From a plasmid: DNA of 64,000 nucleotides. Below are positions 1-54,360 of the stretch, piece by piece (the stretch's first letter is position 1; the number at the start of each line of letters is the position of its first letter). The stretch is taken from NCBI RefSeq assembly GCF_056712565.1, contig NZ_JBWXXM010000003.1; one strand, written 5' to 3'. The translations under genes and the position numbers were made by a program. Below the pieces are notes generated by a model. That model did not search any database, was not told where the DNA came from, and saw only the letters and a list, made by a program, of their open reading frames with translations.

Positions 1-690
1 CGAGTCGCCTGTACTTCCTGTTGATGCCAGTAATCCGGCTTCCTTAAGCCGCTGTGTGTAGGCCAGCGATACATACTGAGAACCTTTATCACTGTGATGG
101 ACTGTGCCGGACGGTCGACGGGCCCATAACGCCTGCTCCAGAGCATCCAGCACAAATGTCGTTTCCATAGACGATGAGACCCGCCACCCCACGATGTATC
201 CGGCAAACACATCAATGATGAACGCCACATAGACGACCCCCTGCCATGTGCTGACGTAAGTAGAATCAGCCACCCACAACTGGTCAGGACGTTCTGCCAC
301 GAACTGACGGTTTACGCGGTCGCCTGCGACAACGGCTTTCCGGCTGATGGTCGTACGGACCTTTTTACCACGGAGAACACCGGCAAGTCCCATAACCGCC
401 ATGAGACGTGCCACAGTGCATCTGGCCACTCTGATACCTTCCCGTAACAACTGACGCCAGACTTTACGCACACCGTATACCTTGTGATTTTCATCGTATA
501 CGCGCTGTATCTCTTTCTTCAGCCAGTCATCGCGCTGCGCACGGGCACTGCGTTTATCCGGATGATGTCGCTGTTGCTGACAGTGGTAATACGTTGACGG
601 GGCAATATGCAGTTCGCTGCATAGCGGTCCGACCCCGTACTGCTCACGCAGCTTATCCAGCAGTGGCATCATTTTTTCCAGAGGCGGTCG
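1..690 (-). CDS. IS3-family transposase OrfB (integrase core), partial
   Basis: Minus-strand translation gives ...[45 protein letters not shown]...[69 protein letters not shown]..., DDE transposase core; runs off window start. Confidence 0.75.
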
Positions 691-995
691 AACTCCGCCT
701 TCGCAAAATAAGCGGAAGCCTGGCGAAGGATATCGTTACTGCGGCGCAGTTCACGATTTTCACGTTCCAGCTCTTTCAGACGCTGACGTTCAGCGGTGGT
801 GAGCCCGCCATCACCGCCTCCGGTATCCCGCTCATGCTGGCGTACCCAGACACGCAGAGTCTCCGGTGTACAGCCAATCTTTGGGGCAATGGAACAAATT
901 GCCGCCCACTGTGAGTCATATTCGCCCTGACTTTCCAGAACCATACGAATCGCCCTCTGACGGACTTCGGGGGAAAAACGAGTATTTTTAGTCAT
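669..995 (-). CDS. IS3-family transposase OrfA (helix-turn-helix, leucine zipper)
   Basis: 108 aa [61 protein letters not shown]... recognised as IS3/IS629-type OrfA. Confidence 0.85.
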
Positions 996-1149
996 CCTGT
1001 TTACCTCTTTCTCAGGGAGTTTAGTCTCCAGGATTCCCGGGGCGGTTCAAGGATTGCGGAAAACCATGTCTATCCAGCTATGATTCGCATAGATTATGGC
1101 CAGGATTTTTTTTATCCAACACGGACGTAATGCGCAGAAAAACATGTAG

Positions 1150-2116: not shown

Positions 2117-2515
2117 TCAACCACCTGAGTTTATTTTCGTCGAATGGTAATGTCTTGTCGCACAAACGCTATCTGAATAATTAACTGTAATGGCGTTATT
2201 GGTATATTTGCCGACATTAACGCTAATAAAGACCCTGATTGCTTCATAATCGCAGGATTTGGCCATTTTGTCTCCCTTTAGATAAGAGTTAACAAAATAA
2301 CCCCAGGAAGAAGGTACCGGTTTCCACGTTACAGACGTTCCCGGCATAAAGTGTCCGACCAGGGCCTTATTCGCAGTTACCAGCGCCCTGTATGCCCTGA
2401 TATTTTCTGGAACATGGATGACCGGGGCAGTAATCATACCGGGTTTGACTGACTCCCCTGATATTCTGACATAAAAGGGAATAAATAAAGCGACATGTGG
2501 CCACATTGTAAACAA
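2117..2515 (-). CDS. hypothetical protein (132 aa), not recognised
   Basis: Intact ORF in intergenic space upstream of ompT; no family recognised from sequence. Confidence 0.3.
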   Translation of the reverse strand: MFTMWPHVALFIPFYVRISGESVKPGMITAPVIHVPENIRAYRALVTANKALVGHFMPGTSVTWKPVPSSWGYFVNSYLKGDKMAKSCDYEAIRVFISVNVGKYTNNAITVNYSDSVCATRHYHSTKINSGG

Positions 2516-2609
2516 ACGTTAAACAAAACAGCATTTTTCAGTTGACTACTACGAGTAAATAAAAAAATATTTATCAAAAACAAACGAGTGGAATGGAGTT
2601 AACTTGTCT

Positions 2610-3563
2610 ATGTACTTAAAGATTCTTGCTACTGCACTCTCAGCTCCTGTAGCGTTTGCTGCACTGGCTTCTGATACTGGGCTTTCTTTTACACCGGAGA
2701 AAATCAGTACGGAGATTGATTTTGGCACTTTAAGTGGCAAGGCCAAAGAACGGGTTTATCTGCCTGAAGAAAAAGGGCGCAAAGCCAGCCAGCTGGACTG
2801 GAAATACAGTAATGCGCCAATTGTCAAGGGGGCATTTAACTGGGATCTGTTACCCAGAGTATCTGTCGGTGCCTCAGGGTGGACAACATTAGCTGGTCGT
2901 GGAGGCAATATGGTGGACAGGGACTGGCTGGATACGAGCAATCCCGGAACCTGGACTGATGAGAGTAAACATCCGAATACCCGTCTAAATTTTGCTAATG
3001 AATTCGACCTGAATATTAAGGGATGGCTCCTGAATCAACCAGACTATCAGTTAGGTCTTATGGCTGGTTACCAGGAAAATCGTTATAGCTTTACAGCAAA
3101 AGGAGGCTCTTATATCTATAGTAGTGAGGGAGGCTTCCGGGATGAAACGGGATCATTTCCAGATGGTGAAAGAGCTATAGGCTACAAACAACACTTTAAA
3201 ATGCCCTATATAGGGTTAACCGGTAATTATCGGTATGATAGCTTTGAGTTCGGGGGGAGTTTCAAATATAGCGGATGGGTGAAGGCATCGGATAATGATG
3301 AGCATTACAACCCTGAGAAAAGGATCACCTATCGTAGCGATGTAAATAATCAGAACTATTACTCTGTCTCACTACATGCTGGTTATTATATTACACCTGC
3401 AGCTAAAGTTTATGTCGAAGGAACATGGAACCGTATTACTAATAAGAAAGGTGATACTTCTCTGTACTCCAGAAATTTGAATATATCTGATCACACCAAA
3501 AATGGTGCAGGCATTGAAAGCTATAACTTTATGACCACAGCTGGTCTGAAGTATTATTTTTAA
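2610..3563 (+). CDS. ompT: omptin-family outer membrane protease (plasmid OmpT)
   Basis: Track ORF 2604-3563; ATG at 2610 preceded by GGAG; signal peptide MYLKILATALSAPVAFA; omptin-like beta-barrel sequence with C-terminal ...TTAGLKYYF. Confidence 0.85.
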   Translation: MYLKILATALSAPVAFAALASDTGLSFTPEKISTEIDFGTLSGKAKERVYLPEEKGRKASQLDWKYSNAPIVKGAFNWDLLPRVSVGASGWTTLAGRGGNMVDRDWLDTSNPGTWTDESKHPNTRLNFANEFDLNIKGWLLNQPDYQLGLMAGYQENRYSFTAKGGSYIYSSEGGFRDETGSFPDGERAIGYKQHFKMPYIGLTGNYRYDSFEFGGSFKYSGWVKASDNDEHYNPEKRITYRSDVNNQNYYSVSLHAGYYITPAAKVYVEGTWNRITNKKGDTSLYSRNLNISDHTKNGAGIESYNFMTTAGLKYYF

Positions 3564-6076: not shown

Positions 6077-6758
6077 AATATGTATAAAGGTAAGTAACTA
6101 TATAAGAGCGTCCAGTCTGCAAATACTCCTCTAAACATGGAGGAGTAGATTTATAATATCATAACATTTACTAAATCGTTTTACATTAATTTCAAATTTG
6201 AAATTAATGTATTTTGATAACTATATATTTTTGATTCCGAAAACAGACATTTCTTTCTTTGAGTCAGGGCTTACACTCAAAATATTAATATTGTTTGTGT
6301 GAAGACATATTATTCAATAACGATGGTGAGAAATATCTGTACTTTTTCGCATAATCTAACCATTTACTTAATTGTTCATTCTGTGAACAGAATCTGTTTG
6401 TTATGTATCAGGTTGATGATGTGATTAAGCAGTCTGAAACCAGAGGAATATGGAGTCAGAAATTTTCAGTTGTCTTTTAAGGGCGTCTGCAGGATTTTTT
6501 CTCCGTTTCTGCCTGTCCTGGCATTACCCCAATTCTCCCAAAAACAGTAAACCAGCCCTCAGCCCGCACCATGACTGGCTTAAGACGGGATCCCAGCGGC
6601 AAAATGCGCCTTTACGTATTTGGTTTTACCCGCAATAATGCGTGATAATCAAACAAAAGGATCCGCGCGCTGCGATTTATTGTCGTGGAAGGATCCGGGC
6701 GTTCAGGTCAGAATACCTGTATCCATAAACAGTGCGTGTGCTACGTGAAAAATAACTC

Positions 6759-28829: not shown

Positions 28830-29309
28830 CTACTGGCTTGCTGTGCCAAACTTTCCGTTGCAGATTTCCTCATTCACAATGGCCTGAAACATGGAAACAG
28901 AATTTCTAGCCTTATCCCTCAGTGCATTAATGAGTTCTGTGTCGTGTATTTTGTTGTAGAAAATGAAAGTAGAAACATCAAACTGGAGTTTAAATGCTGC
29001 TTTCCTTATGGCTAAACCTGACGTGATCGTTATCTCATTATGTATGCGAAGATAGGCAAGATAATCATCGTTATTTGCTTCACACTGCTCATATAAATAT
29101 TTTTGCATGAGAGATTGAGACAAGGCCAGAAATTCCACATATCGTTTGGTTTTTATTTCTTTATCTTTTAATCCCTGTACTGCCGCTTCTTTTTTTAATT
29201 CGTGCTTTTGTGTTAGCTTAAGAGTCAGCCACCCCCCTAAAATAGTCAGCAACGACCCCAAACCTATTTTTACGGCATTATCAGCCACATCCACCCACTC
29301 AGTCGCCAT
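28830..29309 (-). CDS. hypothetical protein (159 aa) with N-terminal TM segment
   Basis: AT-rich ORF, N-terminal hydrophobic helix IGLGSLLTILGGWLTL; divergent from 29427-29876. Confidence 0.45.
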   Translation of the reverse strand: MATEWVDVADNAVKIGLGSLLTILGGWLTLKLTQKHELKKEAAVQGLKDKEIKTKRYVEFLALSQSLMQKYLYEQCEANNDDYLAYLRIHNEITITSGLAIRKAAFKLQFDVSTFIFYNKIHDTELINALRDKARNSVSMFQAIVNEEICNGKFGTASQ

Positions 29310-29426: not shown

Positions 29427-29876
29427 ATGGTTAAATTTCCAGGTGAAGTTATGAGTTCGTCCGCTGCTGTAACCGTTATAACTGGTGTTCTTGTTTTTGT
29501 TGGTGGTCAGCTCATTGTAAAGAGCGCGATTGAACCTTATATAGAATTCAAGAAACAATTGGGAAAAATATCAAATCTGCTATTAGCTAACCAAGCTAAA
29601 TTAGCTAATCCTTGTGCTGTTGAAATGTCTGAGATCATCCATGAGTTGAAAGATGCCGCAGCTCAGTTAATGTCGAAGCATTCAGCTTTGCCTTTCTATA
29701 TCAAAAAATTCCATATCGGATTCCGCTTTGTTCCATCAACGCCTGAAATTATTAGTTCGGCGCAAAAATTGAATTTGATAGCATCAATACATGAAGGTAA
29801 AAGCAAGGAAAGTACATATGAGCACATAGCCGAGATTGGACGTATGCTCAAAATCCCAACCACCTATTCTCTTTAA
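29427..29876 (+). CDS. hypothetical protein (149 aa) with N-terminal TM segment
   Basis: AT-rich ORF, hydrophobic VTVITGVLVFVGGQLIV; followed by hairpin plus T-tract terminator at ~29926-29957. Confidence 0.45.
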   Translation: MVKFPGEVMSSSAAVTVITGVLVFVGGQLIVKSAIEPYIEFKKQLGKISNLLLANQAKLANPCAVEMSEIIHELKDAAAQLMSKHSALPFYIKKFHIGFRFVPSTPEIISSAQKLNLIASIHEGKSKESTYEHIAEIGRMLKIPTTYSL

Positions 29877-30049
29877 TCTTCACGCCGATCAGATTACATA
29901 ATCCACGCGCCACCTGGACATTCAGGTAAAAAAGTCCAACTGGTGAGGTTGGGCTTTTTGGCTTTCCGGTTCTGTTGGTGGCTATGACCGGAGAAAATTG
30001 CTCTACACCTAACGCTTACATTTTATTTACAGCGTTTGATATCTTCCTC

Positions 30050-30094
30050 GCCTTTAACGCCTTTAACGCCTTTAACGCCTTTAACGCCTTTAAG
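30050..30094. repeat. 9-bp tandem repeat (GCCTTTAAC)x5
   Basis: GCCTTTAACGCCTTTAACGCCTTTAACGCCTTTAACGCCTTTAAG read directly. Confidence 0.9.
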
Positions 30095-30501: not shown

Positions 30502-32004
30502 ATGAAGAAATTTTATCAATTTAGGGATGAACAGCGAAAGGAGCTTGAACAACATGATTTTTATAGTTTGATTTCTTCAGATTGTATAGCGTTGAAAGAT
30601 AAACTATTATTTGCTCCTGTTATGGCTCATTTCATAATGAACTTCAGAGACATGAATAAATGGGTTATCAGGTTTGATAACAATGATAATGAATATAAAT
30701 CTGTTATAAACGGTGGAACAATCGAGGATGAAACACATTCAAGATTGTTTCTGGAAGACTGGAGGAAACTATATATAGATGACAAACTTAACTGGAAAGC
30801 AAGTGATGTTATATACTGGTTGTTTATTAGTCGAGAAATGGAGTGTTTCCGAAAATTTGGTATTGATTTTATGAGACTTTGTGTAGATGATGGAGGAGAC
30901 CCAATACTTCGATATTCTCACTCCGAGTCAGGAGAAACTTGCGGTAATATATTCTTTTCAAGAATTAGTCCTATTGCTGATCAAGTTGCCAATCATTTGG
31001 GAATATCACTCCGTTATTTTGGAACATTTCACCTTAATCTTGAAAATGGACATGTATGGAAGTCAGAAGGTGTTTTTGAAAATATAGAGTTGTCACCAGA
31101 TTCTTATAAGAAAATGGCTACTCTATCAAAGAGAATGTTTGATATATTTGAAGGAATTCATGACTCTTTTTATAATTACCTGTCCAGTTATGTTCTTAAT
31201 GGAAGTCATCCGTCATTTTTTGAATCATTACCTGTAGGGAAAAATGTTGCACCTATATACCCTGAATTTGTGATAGAAAACAAAAGCCATAACGATGGTA
31301 GACATATTGAACATATAAACAATTACCTGGAAAAAATATCGAGTCATGAGTTCTTTAAATGGCTGGTTAACACCTCAATAGACCCTCAATTGAAATTGAA
31401 AAGTTTCATACCTCTTTGGATTGTTGATATTATGGGGTATAGAGATATTAATAAATATGTTTTTACATATGAACAGCCTGAATCAGAAAGTGAAAAGATT
31501 ATAAATGATTATGCATTACACTTGTCAGAGCATAGCCGTTTATTTTATCATGACTGGAAGTCACTTCAACTTGATGATATGTTACGTTGGAGTGCCAGTG
31601 ATACTCTTGAGTTTATTTTTCTTAATTCAGATATGGATATGCATAGAGAAAATATAGTTAAGTTTTCTTTGTTCGGATTAAAACACAGAGATCCTGTTAT
31701 CAGGTTCTGGTTTATGATGATACTGGAGTTAAGTGGAAAAGAATTTTTCTCTCATGTTGGAGATATAGCTTTACAGGTGGAAAGTAAATATAATATTTAT
31801 CTCCCATATTTATGTGGACGCCATGCAACAGAAAATGAGCATGAAGCATATAATAATATGTATGAGCATTTTATGGTAAAGGAACTTAGCCCTGAACAAA
31901 GTGATCTAATAATACAAATTACAGACATGGTTATGCGGTCATTATTGAATAATTTGGATATCTCATATCGATATGTAGTAAATAATTTATTGGCAGCTCG
32001 TTAG
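30502..32004 (+). CDS. hypothetical 500-aa protein with internal duplication, AT-rich
   Basis: ATG at 30502 with AGGAG RBS; internal repeats HSRLFLEDWRKLYIDDKLNWKASDVIYWLFISREMECF and HSRLFYHDWKSLQLDDMLRWSASDTLEFIFLNSDMDMH; terminator hairpin AAATCCCACTT-TTCA-GAGTGGGATTTGTTT at ~32040-32070. Confidence 0.6.
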   Translation: MKKFYQFRDEQRKELEQHDFYSLISSDCIALKDKLLFAPVMAHFIMNFRDMNKWVIRFDNNDNEYKSVINGGTIEDETHSRLFLEDWRKLYIDDKLNWKASDVIYWLFISREMECFRKFGIDFMRLCVDDGGDPILRYSHSESGETCGNIFFSRISPIADQVANHLGISLRYFGTFHLNLENGHVWKSEGVFENIELSPDSYKKMATLSKRMFDIFEGIHDSFYNYLSSYVLNGSHPSFFESLPVGKNVAPIYPEFVIENKSHNDGRHIEHINNYLEKISSHEFFKWLVNTSIDPQLKLKSFIPLWIVDIMGYRDINKYVFTYEQPESESEKIINDYALHLSEHSRLFYHDWKSLQLDDMLRWSASDTLEFIFLNSDMDMHRENIVKFSLFGLKHRDPVIRFWFMMILELSGKEFFSHVGDIALQVESKYNIYLPYLCGRHATENEHEAYNNMYEHFMVKELSPEQSDLIIQITDMVMRSLLNNLDISYRYVVNNLLAAR

Positions 32005-32789
32005 AAGAACAGCATTGGTATGACTCTGATGCTCCTTAAAATCCCACTTTTCAGAGTGGGATTTGTTTAATGCCCAGAACAGGGGGAATTTCCATTCATG
32101 CCCAAAAAATATTTTGATGTCCTCTCGCCAATTCTCGCGCTCAGTCCTTCCTGAAAAACCTCAGAATTCACGTAGCGCATCGCCGCTACTGCATCCATCA
32201 AAAAAAATGACAGCTTTTTTAATCATCTTGTGTTACTCAACTTACTGAAAAATGTGATTTATGAAAATGCCGCCGTCGGCATCAAGCAGTTGGCCAGCGC
32301 AACCGGCTGCATCGACCGCAACAAAAAAACTGAAAGAGAAAGCCCCTCAAATGAGGGAGAAAAAAAGGAAGTGCAGTCAACGAGAGGCGTAAAAAACCCG
32401 ACTGGTGAGGTCGGGTTTTAATACGGTTCCGGTTCTGAGTTGGTGGCTCTGACCGGAGGAAGTCACTCTACACCTAACGTTTACATTTTATGCACTCAGC
32501 CGCAGTATTGCAACTAACTGTGGTTAAGGCACCACATTTAGTTGTGTATCGTGGGTTTTATATACCTTATAATCATGAAGTTAGCCGTGTGGTGTGGCTT
32601 CTTCCTCTGCCCTTCCCGTTTATGCAGGTATGAACGATTTTAAAGTCCTGGCTGAACAAACAGGTGGTGCTGTGTTTAGTGCTCTGGCAGGAGGAAGTCA
32701 CTCTGCACCTAACAATGCGAGAGAACCGTTGTGACAGGCAGTGTAAGAGCAAGCAACGGTGATTTCCTCCAGTTTTACTGGAGAAACGG

Positions 32790-32885
32790 ATGATTAATCT
32801 GTTAATCATCGTTCTCAGGGCTGTGGTCGCCGTTGCAAACGCGCTGATTGCAATTCTGGAACTGATTCGCCAGTTCATCGACTGA
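32790..32885 (+). CDS. putative small hydrophobic toxin peptide (31 aa), DinQ/TisB-like, copy 1
   Basis: MINLLIIVLRAVVAVANALIAILELIRQFID; GGAG RBS; start codon inside perfect inverted repeat GATGATTAA-TCTG-TTAATCATC; coordinates approximate. Confidence 0.45.
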   Translation: MINLLIIVLRAVVAVANALIAILELIRQFID

Positions 32886-33707
32886 TGACAGCGGAAACGT
32901 AACTAAGGACAGGAAGTGAACCGCTTCCTGCCCTTTAACGTACTGTGATATTTTTCAAAAAAACTCACCAATATTCTCCTCGGCAGAAATGACATAACTC
33001 ACTGTAAAATAACAAATCATCTAAACGCCAGCTTTGTATTGAGCGCGTTGGCCAACGCCTTTATCAGCTGCGACCGCACCAGATAATTTGAATAAGATTT
33101 CCCGCATCACCTGGACATACAGGTTATTCTGTCCATACCTCATTAGTTACAACATTCACGCGTTCTGTTCCTTTATCCGGTGCCCTGTTCCAGTATATGT
33201 GCCCATATCCTGGGTTATTCAGGATAACCGCTTCCTTTTCGCCCTGTCCTGTCGTTCATATCCCCCTGGACAAAAATGCATTATCGGAAAAAATGTCCAA
33301 AATTTTTTTGGTGATCGGAATTTTTGTTGTCGGACGCACCTCTTCTTCAGGTCATAATTGCTGACACATCCCAAAAAACAGGAGCGGAGATTTAAAAATT
33401 GAGTCACTTACCCGCCAAAATTTTCCAGATTTCACGTAGCGTACCGTCGATACTGTATCCATCAACAAATGACTATTTTTTGAATGTGTCATTTCCTGTA
33501 ACCTACTGAAAAATATCAGTGAATGACAATATCGGCGACAGCATCGGAGCTGATAGCCAGTTTCCTGAATGCATATGGCCAGAACAGTAAATTTGAACCA
33601 GGTTCTCACGTCACCAGGCGACGTGTCTGGGAAACTGGTGAACAACAGGCACAGAAAAGCCCAACTTTATGGGGGTCAGTTCAGTGAGGTTGGGCTAAGA
33701 GAAACGA

Positions 33708-33803
33708 ATGATTAACCTGTTAATCATCATTCTCAGGGATGTGGTCGCCGTTGCAAACGCGCGGATTGCAGTTCTGGAACTGATTCGCCAGTTCATCGTT
33801 TGA
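33708..33803 (+). CDS. putative small hydrophobic toxin peptide (31 aa), DinQ/TisB-like, copy 2
   Basis: MINLLIIILRDVVAVANARIAVLELIRQFIV; same start-codon inverted repeat ATGATTAA-CCTG-TTAATCAT; coordinates approximate. Confidence 0.4.
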   Translation: MINLLIIILRDVVAVANARIAVLELIRQFIV

Positions 33804-34028
33804 TGACAGCGGAAACGTAACTCAGGACAGGAAGTTCCAAATAGCTCCCAGCCAGCATATGTAATTTTCAAAGGGGCAGTTGTTAACTCTGTAATAACGC
33901 CATGTAAAGTATTCCTGCCCCCTCCATGATCCTCCATAGTATTTCTTGAGTTAATTTTCAAAAAGCTTCTGATGGTGATGCTGCCAACTTACTGATTTAG
34001 TGTATGATGGTGTTTTTGAGGTGCTCCA

Positions 34029-42650: not shown

Positions 42651-42876
42651 TAAAAATCAGGATTTATTTCAGGCTCCGGCAATACGCATTTATTTGTTCT
42701 GTCAGTCATCCGGCTGGCAGGTAATGAGAACGCAGGAACAGAAGGAGGAAAACACCGGAAAGCGTCAGATGCAGATATGAAAAAAGCAGGTCAGGGACCT
42801 GCTTAATCCACGCCGTAGAAATCGCCGCAATCGATTTTCACGGCTTCACTAACCTGTGTCATAAGGAGTTTCATTT

Positions 42877-43107
42877 ATGACAGTAAGTATTGTTTCACCT
42901 TCCGCAGCGGCTGTAAAGCCCCGCCGTCATCCCCGTTTCAGACGCGAAGACATCCCCGCGCCGGAAATTGACCCCGTGCTGAAAGCATTCGGGCGACACA
43001 TAGCCCGGAGTTTTCACCGGGGACGTGGTGTACACATCCCCGCCATGAAAAACACGGCTTTCGGGCAGGTGCTCCGCACACTTGAACTGAAACGCGCTTT
43101 TAACTGA
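42877..43107 (+). CDS. hypothetical leading-region protein (76 aa)
   Basis: ORF immediately downstream of Frpo-like repeat 1. Confidence 0.45.
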   Translation: MTVSIVSPSAAAVKPRRHPRFRREDIPAPEIDPVLKAFGRHIARSFHRGRGVHIPAMKNTAFGQVLRTLELKRAFN

Positions 43108-49992: not shown

Positions 49993-50267
49993 TGCGGCAA
50001 TAATCACACGGATTACCCGTGAACTGGTTGAACGACCAGATTATTTTCAGGGAAAGTGAGTGTGGTCAGCGTGCAGGGATATGAGCTATGATGTGCCCGG
50101 CGCTTGAGGCTTTCTGCCTCATGACGTGAAGGTGGTTTGTTACCGTGTTGTGTGGCAGAAGGCAGAAAGCCCCGTAGTTAATTTTTCATTAACCCACGAG
50201 GCCCCCTGTATGTCTGATCAACAACAGTATGGCCTCTTACCGTGCTTAATGCAAGGAGGAGTAAACC

Positions 50268-50429
50268 ATGAAACTACCGGGAAACGCCCTTATCTGGTGC
50301 GTATTAATCGTGTGCTGCACGTTGTTAATATTCACACTCCTGACCCGGAATCGTCTGTGCGAAGTCCGGCTGAAGGACGGATACAGGGAGGTTACGGCAA
50401 GTTTGGCTTACGAATCCAGCGGTAAGTAG
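50268..50429 (+). CDS. hok: Hok/Gef-family type I toxin (flmA/hok-like)
   Basis: [53 protein letters not shown]; overlapping upstream ORF in another frame (50126-50425) consistent with mok. Confidence 0.8.
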
Positions 50430-54158: not shown

Positions 54159-54279
54159 AAGAAATTTGACTTCGTTCAAATATCAGAGTTTTTATGATTT
54201 AAAAAGGTGACAGTACGAAAGATAATTAGTATATTAATTACGTGGTTAATGCCACGTTAAAATTTGAAATTAAAAATCG

Positions 54280-54360
54280 CCGATGCAGGGAGACGTGAAC
54301 TCCCTGCATCGACTGTCCATAGAATCCTTTGTGAGGAGGTTCCTATGTATCCGATGGATC
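54280..54360 (-). ncRNA. finP: FinP antisense RNA (approximate position, antisense to traJ leader/start)
   Basis: By F-like organisation FinP is antisense to traJ 5' UTR and start codon (traJ ATG ~54345); not verified by structure. Confidence 0.35.

Follow-up and report, generated by a model that had tools for sequence, protein, structure and literature searches.

Two open reading frames (ORFs) of 31 codons each, dqlB-1 and dqlB-2, lie on the plus strand of a 64,000-nucleotide stretch of plasmid DNA, the whole of which is referred to here as the window; the coordinates and translations given by an earlier, sequence-only reading of this DNA were reproduced exactly (Table 1). Against the NCBIfam model NF041473 (DinQ-like type I toxin DqlB; curated whole-protein cut-off, 35 bits), the dqlB-1 peptide scored 72.4 bits (E = 1.9e-20) and the dqlB-2 peptide 58.2 bits (E = 5.2e-16), which places the suggested resemblance to DinQ far beyond chance and bears out the call of tandem DinQ-family type I toxin genes. 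The whole-protein cut-off of NF041472, the model for DinQ proper (30 bits), was missed by both (25.1 bits for ORF 1 and 14.4 bits for ORF 2); judged by these profile scores, the peptides are relatives of DinQ and not DinQ proper. The likeness to TisB that had also been suggested was not recovered: at E values up to 10, the only NCBIfam matches were to the DqlB and DinQ models, and the TisB model was absent. RefSeq proteins identical to ORF 1 (WP_000609147.1, from pECOS88) and ORF 2 (WP_000609144.1) are both named dqlB. With the diversity of the DqlB family sampled from annotated plasmids and genomes, comparison of dqlB-1 with other dqlB genes yielded a dN/dS ratio of ~0.05 to 0.15. Finally, the ORF list contained two minus-strand ORFs over the same DNA (32573-32878 and 33695-33961), previously regarded as the antisense partner region rather than real proteins. 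That they are not real proteins agrees with their being unannotated on an identical RefSeq plasmid, but they are not the antitoxin region either, as the AgrB small RNA (sRNA) is encoded upstream instead.

TABLE 1 Features of the agrB-dqlB region (positions within the window)
Feature	Position	Strand	Description
Unit 1 conserved upstream block	32162-32253	+	TTCACGTAGCG...TACTGAAAAAT; also found with the agrB-dql/dinQ modules of IncX1 and IncX4 plasmids
agrB-1	32389-32478	-	AgrB-family antisense sRNA (Rfam RF02891); antitoxin by analogy
agrB-1 terminator hairpin	32394-32420	-	Rho-independent
agrB-1 candidate promoter	32485-32513	-	Sigma-70-like; TTGCAA, 17-nt spacer, TAAAAT; 9/12 consensus matches
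dqlB-1 -10 box	32568-32573	+	Perfect TATAAT, read from sequence
dqlB-1 5' UTR	32580-32789	+	Carries the published four-element switch
Element 1	32598-32611	+	dqlB-1 5' UTR
AgrB-1 target in dqlB-1 mRNA	32681-32713	+	33 nt; direct repeat of agrB-1 5' region
Element 2	32686-32697	+	dqlB-1 5' UTR
Element 3	32763-32772	+	dqlB-1 5' UTR
Element 4 with SD (CUGGAG)	32778-32783	+	dqlB-1 5' UTR
dqlB-1 start-codon hairpin	32789-32810	+	GATGATTAA-TCTG-TTAATCATC; 9 bp, -8.3 kcal/mol; equivalent of dinQ SL6
dqlB-1	32790-32885	+	Predicted 31-aa single-helix hydrophobic type I toxin gene; translation MINLLIIVLRAVVAVANALIAILELIRQFID
dqlB-1 terminator hairpin	32905-32939	+	GGACAGGAAG...CTTCCTGCCC, then TTTAAC; MFE fold and terminator scan
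Unit 2 upstream block	33426-33514	+	Paralogue of 32162-32253
Degenerate remnant	33515-33696	+	Block-to-agrB 3' half segment; collinear alignment
agrB-terminator-derived hairpin	33658-33696		3' arm matches agrB-2 29943-29955
dqlB-2 start-codon hairpin	33708-33727	+	ATGATTAA-CCTG-TTAATCAT; 8 bp, -4.6 kcal/mol
dqlB-2	33708-33803	+	31-codon ORF; translation MINLLIIILRDVVAVANARIAVLELIRQFIV
agrB-2	29926-30013	-	Orphan AgrB-family gene; RF02891, 46 bits (gathering score, 40)

The first of the two genes belongs to a complete, canonical agrB-dqlB module, referred to here as unit 1 (32162-32939). Its upstream block is collinear with that of the IncX4 locus L002 and the IncX1 loci L003 and L015, and homology to the IncX modules stops at 32939, at the end of a terminator hairpin with a weak U-tract. 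In homologous loci, TATAAT or TATACT is found just 5' of the aligned GTTAGC 5' end, and conserved -10 elements have been described for the family (PMC5066626); transcription of dqlB-1 would thus be expected to start at ~32580. The promoter, combining a perfect -10 box with a poor -35 region, was missed by a consensus scan. On the opposite strand, 312 nt upstream of the dqlB-1 ATG, lies agrB-1, which matched the full RF02891 model (positions 1 to 84) with 64 bits (gathering score, 40) and is preceded by a candidate promoter, a consensus match from the promoter scan only, placed for a transcription start at ~32478. AgrB occupies the corresponding place, on the opposite strand and ~310 nt upstream, in 11 of the 12 further dql/dinQ modules that gave an AgrB match; AgrB was detected in all but 1 of the 13 comparison modules, the exception being that of pOXA-48 (L011).

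The 5' region of agrB-1 is a direct repeat of part of the dqlB-1 leader (32431-32478 versus 32666-32713; 83.7% identity). Since RNAduplex runs on the full-length RNAs produced huge loops and were uninformative, the first 36 nt of AgrB were instead tested against sliding 45-nt windows, with shuffled controls. The duplex of AgrB-1 with the dqlB-1 5' UTR reached -64.0 kcal/mol, compared to -24.7 ± 2.3 kcal/mol for shuffled AgrB.

The dqlB-1 leader could be aligned with those of chromosomal dinQ and 11 plasmid dql loci, and in this alignment compensatory changes affect 19 of 50 predicted pairs, including pairs of the 2:3 duplex, SL2, and SL4. The mutually exclusive 1:2, 2:3, and 3:4 pairings and the hairpin that sequesters the Shine-Dalgarno (SD) sequence are all predicted for unit 1. 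Folding of the 5' UTR, one of the checks proposed by the sequence-only reading, gave a minimum-free-energy structure of the full-length RNA in which a long 1:2 stem forms and the SD hairpin is closed, the modeled probability of the latter being 0.87. In 5'-truncated RNA, the modeled probability of the SD hairpin dropped to 0.08 to 0.20 and that of the 2:3 duplex was 0.83 to 0.94, and with the AgrB site blocked the SD hairpin rose to 0.99.

Both start codons do lie inside perfect hairpins, as had been noted, and this hairpin is conserved at each of the 13 loci, where the changes in the stem replace A:U with G:C or introduce wobble pairs. The whole window contains 22 perfect hairpins with stems of 9 bp or more, compared to 1.8 ± 2.1 in shuffled sequences. 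The further suggestion that the start-codon hairpin blocks translation until the mRNA is processed was contradicted. Its dinQ equivalent, SL6 (G194-C215), gives the same SHAPE pattern whether the mRNA is the inactive +1 or the active +44 form (PMC5066626), and the dqlB-1 hairpin is predicted to be closed in every modeled state (paired with a probability of 0.90 to 0.97). The hairpin appears constitutive and therefore is not a processing-dependent switch; as a family-wide constant, it probably merely damps initiation. According to the folding models, the switch that depends on processing and on AgrB is the SD hairpin, together with the 1:2 and 2:3 pairings.

Unit 2, which contains dqlB-2, has a different makeup. 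Self-BLAST showed that the two units share a 137-nt core (32781-32917 versus 33699-33835; 93.4% identity), the flanks of which show ~65 to 70% identity in unit 2. The upstream blocks, which had been described as shared but diverged, are indeed 84% identical (32162-32205 versus 33426-33469), followed by the TACTGAAAAAT motif; beyond core and block, no further similarity between the units was found by self-BLAST. The segment between them in unit 2 is collinear with IncX4, IncX1, and pS13-4 sequences, from the block to ...GAGTTGGTGGCT of agrB. An origin of this leader from the dqlB 5' UTR was ruled out, the UTR alignment being weaker than the collinear alignment running from the block to the 3' half of agrB. 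Unit 2 was derived by deletion: the 5' part of agrB, both promoters, and the dqlB 5' UTR have been removed, and it lacks the four-element leader because of this deletion. The SD sequence has been weakened to AAGAG (33697-33701; GGAG to AGAG), the start-codon hairpin is weaker than that of dqlB-1, and homology stops at 33835, within the terminator stem, leaving half of the terminator missing. Scans for sigma-70-like promoters around unit 2 gave none on either strand, and inspection by eye gave poor candidates only. Similarly, no Rfam match, to AgrB or otherwise, was found in unit 2 at E values up to 1. Its complementarity to AgrB-1 and AgrB-2 was no better than that of shuffled sequences, with the best values (-24.2 and -22.9 kcal/mol) at background level, and the AgrB target that characterizes the module is therefore absent from unit 2.

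The coding sequence of dqlB-2 has changed as well. It carries four private substitutions (V8I, A11D, L19R, and D31V), all nonsynonymous and all at positions where 10 other dqlB genes show no variation; two of the substitutions put charges into the helix. Compared with unit 1, its dN/dS ratio is ~0.9, although with only 7 nucleotide differences the contrast with the ratio of 0.05 to 0.15 is not statistically strong. The same dqlB-2 copy occurs alone, again without AgrB, beside mcjA on a microcin J25 plasmid (p98194-contig_4; the stand-alone copy in locus L014). Unit 2 is an orphan and probably defunct; a relic that is silent or detoxified is the likeliest reading. The earlier notion of duplicated toxin/antisense pairs thus fits unit 1 and fails for unit 2, which has no AgrB gene, AgrB target, or regulatory 5' UTR.

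Some features point away from a relic. The dqlB-2 ORF is intact and scores above the DqlB cut-off, with a core much better conserved than its flanks, and it could be expressed by read-through from the upstream block or from neighboring genes.

A second AgrB-family gene, agrB-2, is 81.7% identical to agrB-1 (over 29926-30026) but its -35 region is gone and no dql gene adjoins it. AgrB-2 is partly complementary to the dqlB-1 target (-44.3 kcal/mol versus -23.2 ± 2.8 kcal/mol for shuffled sequences). We considered it as the missing antitoxin of unit 2 and ruled it out, its complementarity there being at background. The gene is an orphan antitoxin remnant, the converse of unit 2.

The locus is carried by a ColV-type IncF plasmid, within a mosaic of IncX-derived DNA bounded by two copies of IS1. 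Identical DNA, annotated with two dqlB genes (RefSeq, PGAP), is present on pECOS88 and more than 20 other plasmids; the unit 1 module was found in at least 1,841 PLSDB plasmids, and some part of it was matched in 2,268 of 5,426 complete Escherichia coli genomes. Carriage of agrB-dqlB by IncF plasmids has been reported as uncommon (4.2%; PMC12365149). Three neighboring hypothetical proteins had no PADLOC or NCBIfam match, and hok/sok is also located within the window (sok at 50098-50270). The locus is not new. The sequence-only reading knew of no plasmid-borne dinQ-like locus, but the dql family was defined and named, plasmid members included, in 2016 (Kristiansen et al. 2016; PMC5066626), work published in 2025 established the agrB-dqlB loci of pOXA-48 and pOXA-484 as toxin-antitoxin addiction modules (PMC12365149, PMC12317039), and PGAP annotates the genes on identical plasmids. 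The RNA switch and the AgrB antitoxin have likewise been published: the switch was worked out experimentally for dinQ, the only member for which 5' processing and RNase III cleavage of the AgrB duplex are known, in vitro and in vivo (PMC5066626), and DqlB toxicity, rescue by AgrB, and plasmid stabilization have been reported (PMC12365149, PMC12317039, PMC12361523).

In summary, the locus very probably consists of one complete agrB-dqlB type I toxin-antitoxin (postsegregational killing) module, accompanied by the debris of others, in an IncX-derived mosaic. Family membership, anatomy, complementarity, predicted structures, and the relaxed constraint on unit 2 come from the present analysis, and we extrapolate from published experiments with dinQ and dqlB when it comes to transcription starts, processing, RNase III cleavage, toxicity, and addiction. 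By that analogy, a dqlB-1 mRNA of roughly 350 nt would be transcribed from the TATAAT promoter at ~32568 and be translationally inert at full length, with element 1, at its 5' end, pairing with element 2 and leaving element 3 free to shut the hairpin over the GGAG of the SD sequence. Removal of the 5' end would release element 2 to pair with element 3, opening the SD sequence. AgrB-1, made divergently from 32478, would pair through its first 33 nt with element 2 and its flanks, thereby reclosing the SD hairpin, and the duplex of AgrB-1 with dqlB-1 may then, as for dinQ, be a substrate for RNase III. Upon plasmid loss, AgrB would not be replenished, and the 31-amino-acid membrane peptide would be made, killing or arresting the cell. 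Unit 2 most probably arose from a similar module through a deletion of ~330 nt that joined the 3' half of an agrB gene to the SD region; it now lacks a promoter of its own, the switch, an AgrB target, and a complete terminator and has gained charged residues in its helix.

That both units are functional modules, with unit 2 controlled by an antisense RNA of its own (for example, one transcribed in cis across the ORF and ending at the 33658-33696 hairpin), seems unlikely to us. The minus strand of this hairpin continues into TTTTCTGTG and is therefore a possible antisense terminator, the ORF is intact and above the DqlB cut-off, its 137-nt core is 93% conserved next to flanks at ~65 to 70%, and the same copy persists on the unrelated microcin J25 plasmid. 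A second module would nevertheless have to do without a recognizable sigma-70-like promoter on either strand, an Rfam match at E values up to 1, or complementarity to AgrB-1 or AgrB-2 above shuffled levels, and with an AGAG in place of the GGAG, an incomplete terminator, and four private nonsynonymous changes at invariant positions, two of them charging the helix. We are somewhat more doubtful still that dqlB-2 is a functionally shifted paralogue needing no antitoxin, whether as an attenuated peptide or as a dominant-negative partner tempering DqlB-1, that is expressed by read-through via its agrB-terminator-derived leader and kept on at least two unrelated plasmid backgrounds (ColV and microcin J25); the residues invoked for such a shift are D11, R19, and V31.

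The founder of the family, dinQ, is repressed by LexA (PMC5066626), which raises the question of whether the locus encodes an SOS-inducible damage-response toxin like chromosomal DinQ instead of a constitutive plasmid-addiction module. Indeed, a CTG-N10-CAG site that has been flagged upstream of the pTF2 dqlB gene, with a heterology index of 11.64 (PMC12211044), recurs unchanged here as TCCTGGCTGAACAAACAGGT at 32646-32665. However, this site would lie ~65 to 85 nt inside the transcribed 5' UTR, and its dyad is accounted for by the covarying SL2 stem. No CTGT-N8-ACAG core was found between 29 and 34 kb, the single one in the whole window being at 6717, nor was any 20-mer found within three mismatches of the LexA consensus. 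With DqlB undetected in the pTF2 proteome (PMC12211044) and the dqlB genes of pOXA-48 and pOXA-484 acting as addiction modules (PMC12365149, PMC12317039), we consider SOS control very improbable here. Least credible, to the point of being negligible, is the idea that ORFs and hairpins are chance features of noncoding DNA: very short ORFs in a region overlapped by many spurious ones do invite such a suspicion, but it is hard to reconcile with E values of 1.9e-20 and 5.2e-16, the strong purifying selection on the family, the co-location of an AgrB gene in nearly every comparison locus, and the toxicity demonstrated for homologues.

For the plasmid, the agrB-dqlB module may, by analogy with its published relatives and together with hok/sok and SopAB in the window, contribute to the stable inheritance of a ColV-type virulence plasmid. 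The value of the present analysis lies in annotation, not in new biology. It illustrates how a module decays, with a leader-stripped orphan toxin and a toxinless orphan antitoxin both found near an intact module, and it presents the start-codon hairpin as a conserved, constitutive element rather than a switch.

The closest known systems are the plasmid-borne agrB-dqlB modules of pOXA-48 (IncL) and pOXA-484 (IncX3), which share with unit 1 the NF041473 protein and AgrB sRNA families, a divergent agrB ~310 nt upstream, ~33 to 35 nt of complementarity to the UTR, the four-element SD switch, the start-codon hairpin, and the terminator. Along the module, unit 1 is 85.6% identical to IncX4 plasmids (87.6% in a database search) and 72 to 74% identical to the IncX3 and pOXA-48 loci. 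Unlike pOXA-48 and pOXA-484, the replicon that carries unit 1 is a virulence plasmid of the ColV type (IncFIB/F), and among the IncX fragments between IS1 copies, unit 1 has a degenerate, orphaned dqlB and an orphan agrB for neighbors. The dinQ-agrB locus of E. coli K-12 (with agrA) has a homologous 5' UTR, SD hairpin, SL6, and AgrB and follows the same 1:2, 2:3, and 3:4 logic, and its peptide has a core (IIVL...LELIR) in common with the DqlB peptides described here. DinQ differs in having 27 amino acids instead of 31, a GUG start, and another midhelix, and the K-12 locus has a LexA operator and an agrA paralogue, whereas a canonical LexA box is absent here. The tisB/istR-1 system shows the same logic: its toxin is likewise small and hydrophobic, its primary transcript is inert until processed at the 5' end, and its antisense RNA is encoded divergently and acts in trans. 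Given the absence of a TisB match at E values up to 10, its toxin has no sequence similarity to our peptides, and tisB uses a ribosome standby site instead of direct SD opening (PMC5066626). Finally, hok/sok, another type I addiction module of plasmids, likewise encodes a membrane-active peptide and is controlled through 5'/3' mRNA folding, but Sok is a cis-encoded antisense RNA over the mok/hok leader, and its peptide and RNA families are unrelated to DqlB and AgrB.

The two 31-codon ORFs proposed in the sequence-only reading of this region were both found, with the translations given there. Both peptides exceed the cut-off (35 bits) of NCBIfam model NF041473, "DinQ-like type I toxin DqlB" (72.4 bits for dqlB-1 and 58.2 bits for dqlB-2), so the DinQ motif had been recognized correctly; DinQ proper (NF041472) is also matched by both, but under that model's cut-off. 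It was, however, wrong to state that plasmids have no known dinQ-like locus. The dql (dinQ-like) family was named by Kristiansen et al. in 2016, with natural plasmids and multi-copy strains explicitly included (PMC5066626), and in 2025, DqlB toxicity, rescue by AgrB, killing upon plasmid loss, and plasmid stabilization were demonstrated for pOXA-48 (PMC12365149), results backed by a CRISPRi screen (PMC12361523); all four properties were likewise demonstrated for the IncX3 plasmid pOXA-484 (PMC12317039). The window itself is a ColV-type IncFIB/F plasmid whose positions 32100-33900 match pECOS88 and >20 further plasmids at 100% identity, on which (e.g., pECOS88) RefSeq names both ORFs dqlB. The reading was thus correct and perceptive, yet the system is already known and annotated.

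Features of the dqlB/agrB region and other RNA matches in the window
Feature	Position	Strand	Description
agrB-1	32389-32477	-	Rfam AgrB, 64 bits
agrB-1 promoter	32513-32485	-	TTGCAA-17-TAAAAT (promoter scan)
dqlB-1 -10 box	32568-32573	+	Perfect TATAAT
Element 1	32598-32611		Pairing segment of dqlB-1 leader
Element 2	32686-32697		Pairing segment, in AgrB-target region
dqlB-1 SD hairpin	32767-32772 / 32778-32783		CUCCAG/CUGGAG (MFE fold)
dqlB-1 start-codon hairpin	32789-32810	+	GATGATTAA-TCTG-TTAATCATC, 9 bp, -8.3 kcal/mol
dqlB-1 ORF	32790-32885	+	Peptide MINLLIIVLRAVVAVANALIAILELIRQFID
dqlB-2 start-codon hairpin	33708-33727	+	ATGATTAA-CCTG-TTAATCAT, 8 bp, -4.6 kcal/mol
dqlB-2 ORF	33708-33803	+	Peptide MINLLIIILRDVVAVANARIAVLELIRQFIV
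agrB-2	29926-30013	-	Rfam AgrB, 46 bits (match at 29926-30012; weaker than agrB-1); orphan, no adjoining dql toxin
Hypothetical protein	30502-32004	+	500 aa
Hypothetical protein	29451-29876	+	141 aa
Hypothetical protein	28830-29309	-	159 aa, WP_000190053.1
sok antitoxin	50098-50270		Rfam; second type I addiction system
traJ 5' UTR/FinP	54240-54351		Rfam
AS-pc01 antisense RNA	42781-42882		Rfam
ALIL frameshift pseudoknot	598-714		Rfam; IS3-family element

Unit 1 (32162-32939), comprising agrB-1 and dqlB-1, aligns collinearly with IncX4 plasmid pCFSA231 (85.6% by pairwise alignment and 87.6% by database search) and with IncX1 modules. Besides its promoter, agrB-1 carries a terminator hairpin. Because of a direct repeat inside the unit (32431-32478 versus 32666-32713), the 5' end of the AgrB-1 antisense RNA finds its complement in the dqlB-1 leader (32681-32713), and the duplex reaches -64.0 kcal/mol, against -24.7 ± 2.3 kcal/mol with shuffled AgrB. 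Placed from the TATAAT box, the dqlB-1 +1 would lie near 32580. AgrB was found by Rfam (gathering score, 40 bits) in all but one of the 13 comparison modules and, in 11 of these 12, is encoded on the opposite strand, ~310 nt before the ATG; in an IncI1-type locus (L008), the sole match over the gathering score (1037-1124, minus strand) is located 3' of dqlB, not 5'. No match reaching that score was obtained on pOXA-48, although its agrB has been experimentally validated, showing that the Rfam model misses divergent AgrB genes. Since unit 1 has each feature that could be tested, it is, on computable features, a full member of the dql family. On IncX1 plasmid pRHB32-C09_3 (L003), two complete agrB-dqlB modules lie in tandem (2225-3376), the first encoding a 27-aa toxin variant (MMNLLIIVLRAVLAIANALIAIQKLIE); the modules differ from each other in both AgrB 5' end and target sequence, suggesting that AgrB/target specificities have co-evolved.

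Self-comparison revealed only two stretches common to both units: a 137-nt core (32781-32917 versus 33699-33835; 93.4% identity), spanning the ORF with 9 nt on its 5' side and 32 nt on its 3' side, and the shared upstream block noticed earlier (32162-32205 versus 33426-33469; 84% identity, plus the TACTGAAAAAT motif). A conserved ~90-nt non-coding block (TTCACGTAGCG...TACTGAAAAAT; 32162-32253 in unit 1 and 33426-33514 in unit 2) also precedes IncX1/IncX4 agrB-dql/dinQ modules (L002, 2265-2360; L003, 1996-2090; L015, 1541-1640) and yielded no Rfam match, convincing promoter, or convincing LexA box. A RefSeq "hypothetical protein" (32254-32421), running from this block into the agrB terminator in a frame not conserved between plasmids, is probably spurious.

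In unit 2, the DNA 5' of the shared core (33420-33696) can be aligned collinearly, at ~65 to 70% identity, to the IncX segment stretching between the block and the 3' half of agrB, the match ending at ...GAGTTGGTGGCT. The hairpin at 33658-33696 is a remnant of an agrB terminator; its 3' arm recurs unchanged in agrB-2 (29943-29955). A ~330-nt deletion fuses the agrB remnant straight to AAGAGAAACGAATG, so that unit 2 has lost the entire regulatory leader, the two promoters, and the 5' antisense part of agrB. Furthermore, its Shine-Dalgarno (SD) sequence is weaker (GGAG to AGAG), its start hairpin is weakened by an altered base preceding the ATG, and its 3' homology stops at 33835, mid terminator stem. 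A scan of both strands around unit 2 found no promoter, and complementarity to AgrB-1 and AgrB-2 (-24.2 and -22.9 kcal/mol; shuffled means, -26.5 and -23.2) equals background. The proposed tandem of toxin/antisense modules therefore holds for unit 1, with its AgrB-1, target, and switch, but not for unit 2, without AgrB complementarity, promoter, or leader.

The four private substitutions of dqlB-2 (V8I, A11D, L19R, and D31V) are all non-synonymous, and ten other dqlB genes show no variation at any of these positions. Its dN/dS relative to dqlB-1 is ~0.9 (0.077/0.087), versus ~0.05 to 0.15 for canonical dqlB pairs, a selection argument that, given the few differences, is suggestive rather than conclusive. 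A functional toxin without regulation should be lethal, and dqlB-2 is therefore most simply read as a silent or detoxified relic. Of remaining interest are the decay products (orphan toxin and orphan antitoxin) and the slight possibility that dqlB-2 has shifted in function. In PLSDB, at least 1841 plasmids carry the unit 1 module, against only ~70 with unit 2 in its full context. Positions 33457-33979 are 99.6% identical to DNA flanking mcjA, the microcin J25 precursor gene, on p98194-contig_4 (L014, 1259-1782), where dqlB-2 is also without any AgrB. This homology stops where IS1 starts (~33973-33979), suggesting that IS1 insertion or recombination removed an mcj cluster or its neighborhood.

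The 28.8- to 34-kb region, which lies between two IS1 copies, is pieced together from IncX-type fragments. Here, agrB-2 has kept its -10 box and lost its -35 region. After it come five perfect tandem copies of a 9-bp unit, (CGCCTTTAA)x5 (30049-30093); this repeat resembles the dqlB terminator tail and varies in copy number (four in pECOS88). If expressed, AgrB-2 could act as a weak second antitoxin, its partial complementarity to the dqlB-1 target reaching -44.3 kcal/mol (shuffled, -23.2 ± 2.8). The three hypothetical proteins encoded just 5' of the locus, in low-GC DNA, had no PADLOC or NCBIfam match; the 159-aa protein is also found on an IncX4 plasmid, adjoining a tyrosine recombinase.

As for SOS control, the locus was searched for a canonical LexA box, and none was found. 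A CTG-N10-CAG dyad (TCCTGGCTGAACAAACAGGT, 32646-32665) has exactly the sequence of a putative LexA site reported 5' of dqlB on pTF2, where it scored HI 11.64 (PMC12211044). The dyad sits within the transcribed dqlB-1 leader, inside the covarying SL2 stem, so its symmetry may be RNA structural, and LexA control appears unlikely from the DNA sequence.

Both start codons do lie in perfect inverted repeats, as the sequence-only reading had it. This hairpin is kept in 13/13 compared loci, dinQ included (GGUGAUUG-AUAAAG-CAAUCAUC), with one A:U to G:C compensatory change plus G·U wobble changes. SHAPE showed its dinQ counterpart, SL6 (G194-C215), to be identical in inert +1 and active +44 mRNAs (PMC5066626), and partition-function calculations gave a closed dqlB-1 hairpin (P = 0.90 to 0.97) across all modelled states. 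The hairpin is thus real, conserved, and constitutive. It probably damps initiation, and it is not the processing-dependent switch originally proposed, a role that belongs to the SD hairpin.

Folded from the inferred +1, the dqlB-1 leader reproduces the published dinQ architecture: a long stem between the 5' end (containing element 1) and the AgrB-target region (containing element 2), then an SL4-like stem-loop, the SD hairpin, and a separate hairpin over the AUG. In an alignment with chromosomal dinQ and 11 plasmid dql/dinQ leaders, homology runs along most of the length, with compensatory changes in 19 of 50 predicted pairs, including the 2:3 duplex, SL2, and SL4. By partition function, the SD hairpin is closed in full-length mRNA (P = 0.87; 2:3 duplex, 0.00) and with the AgrB site blocked (0.99; 2:3 duplex, 0.00), whereas 5' truncation (start at 32615-32640) shifts it to 0.08 to 0.20 and the 2:3 duplex to 0.83 to 0.94. 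This predicted switch is the mechanism demonstrated experimentally for dinQ, in which the SD is closed off either by the 1:2 duplex or by bound AgrB and becomes open when the 2:3 duplex forms (PMC5066626).
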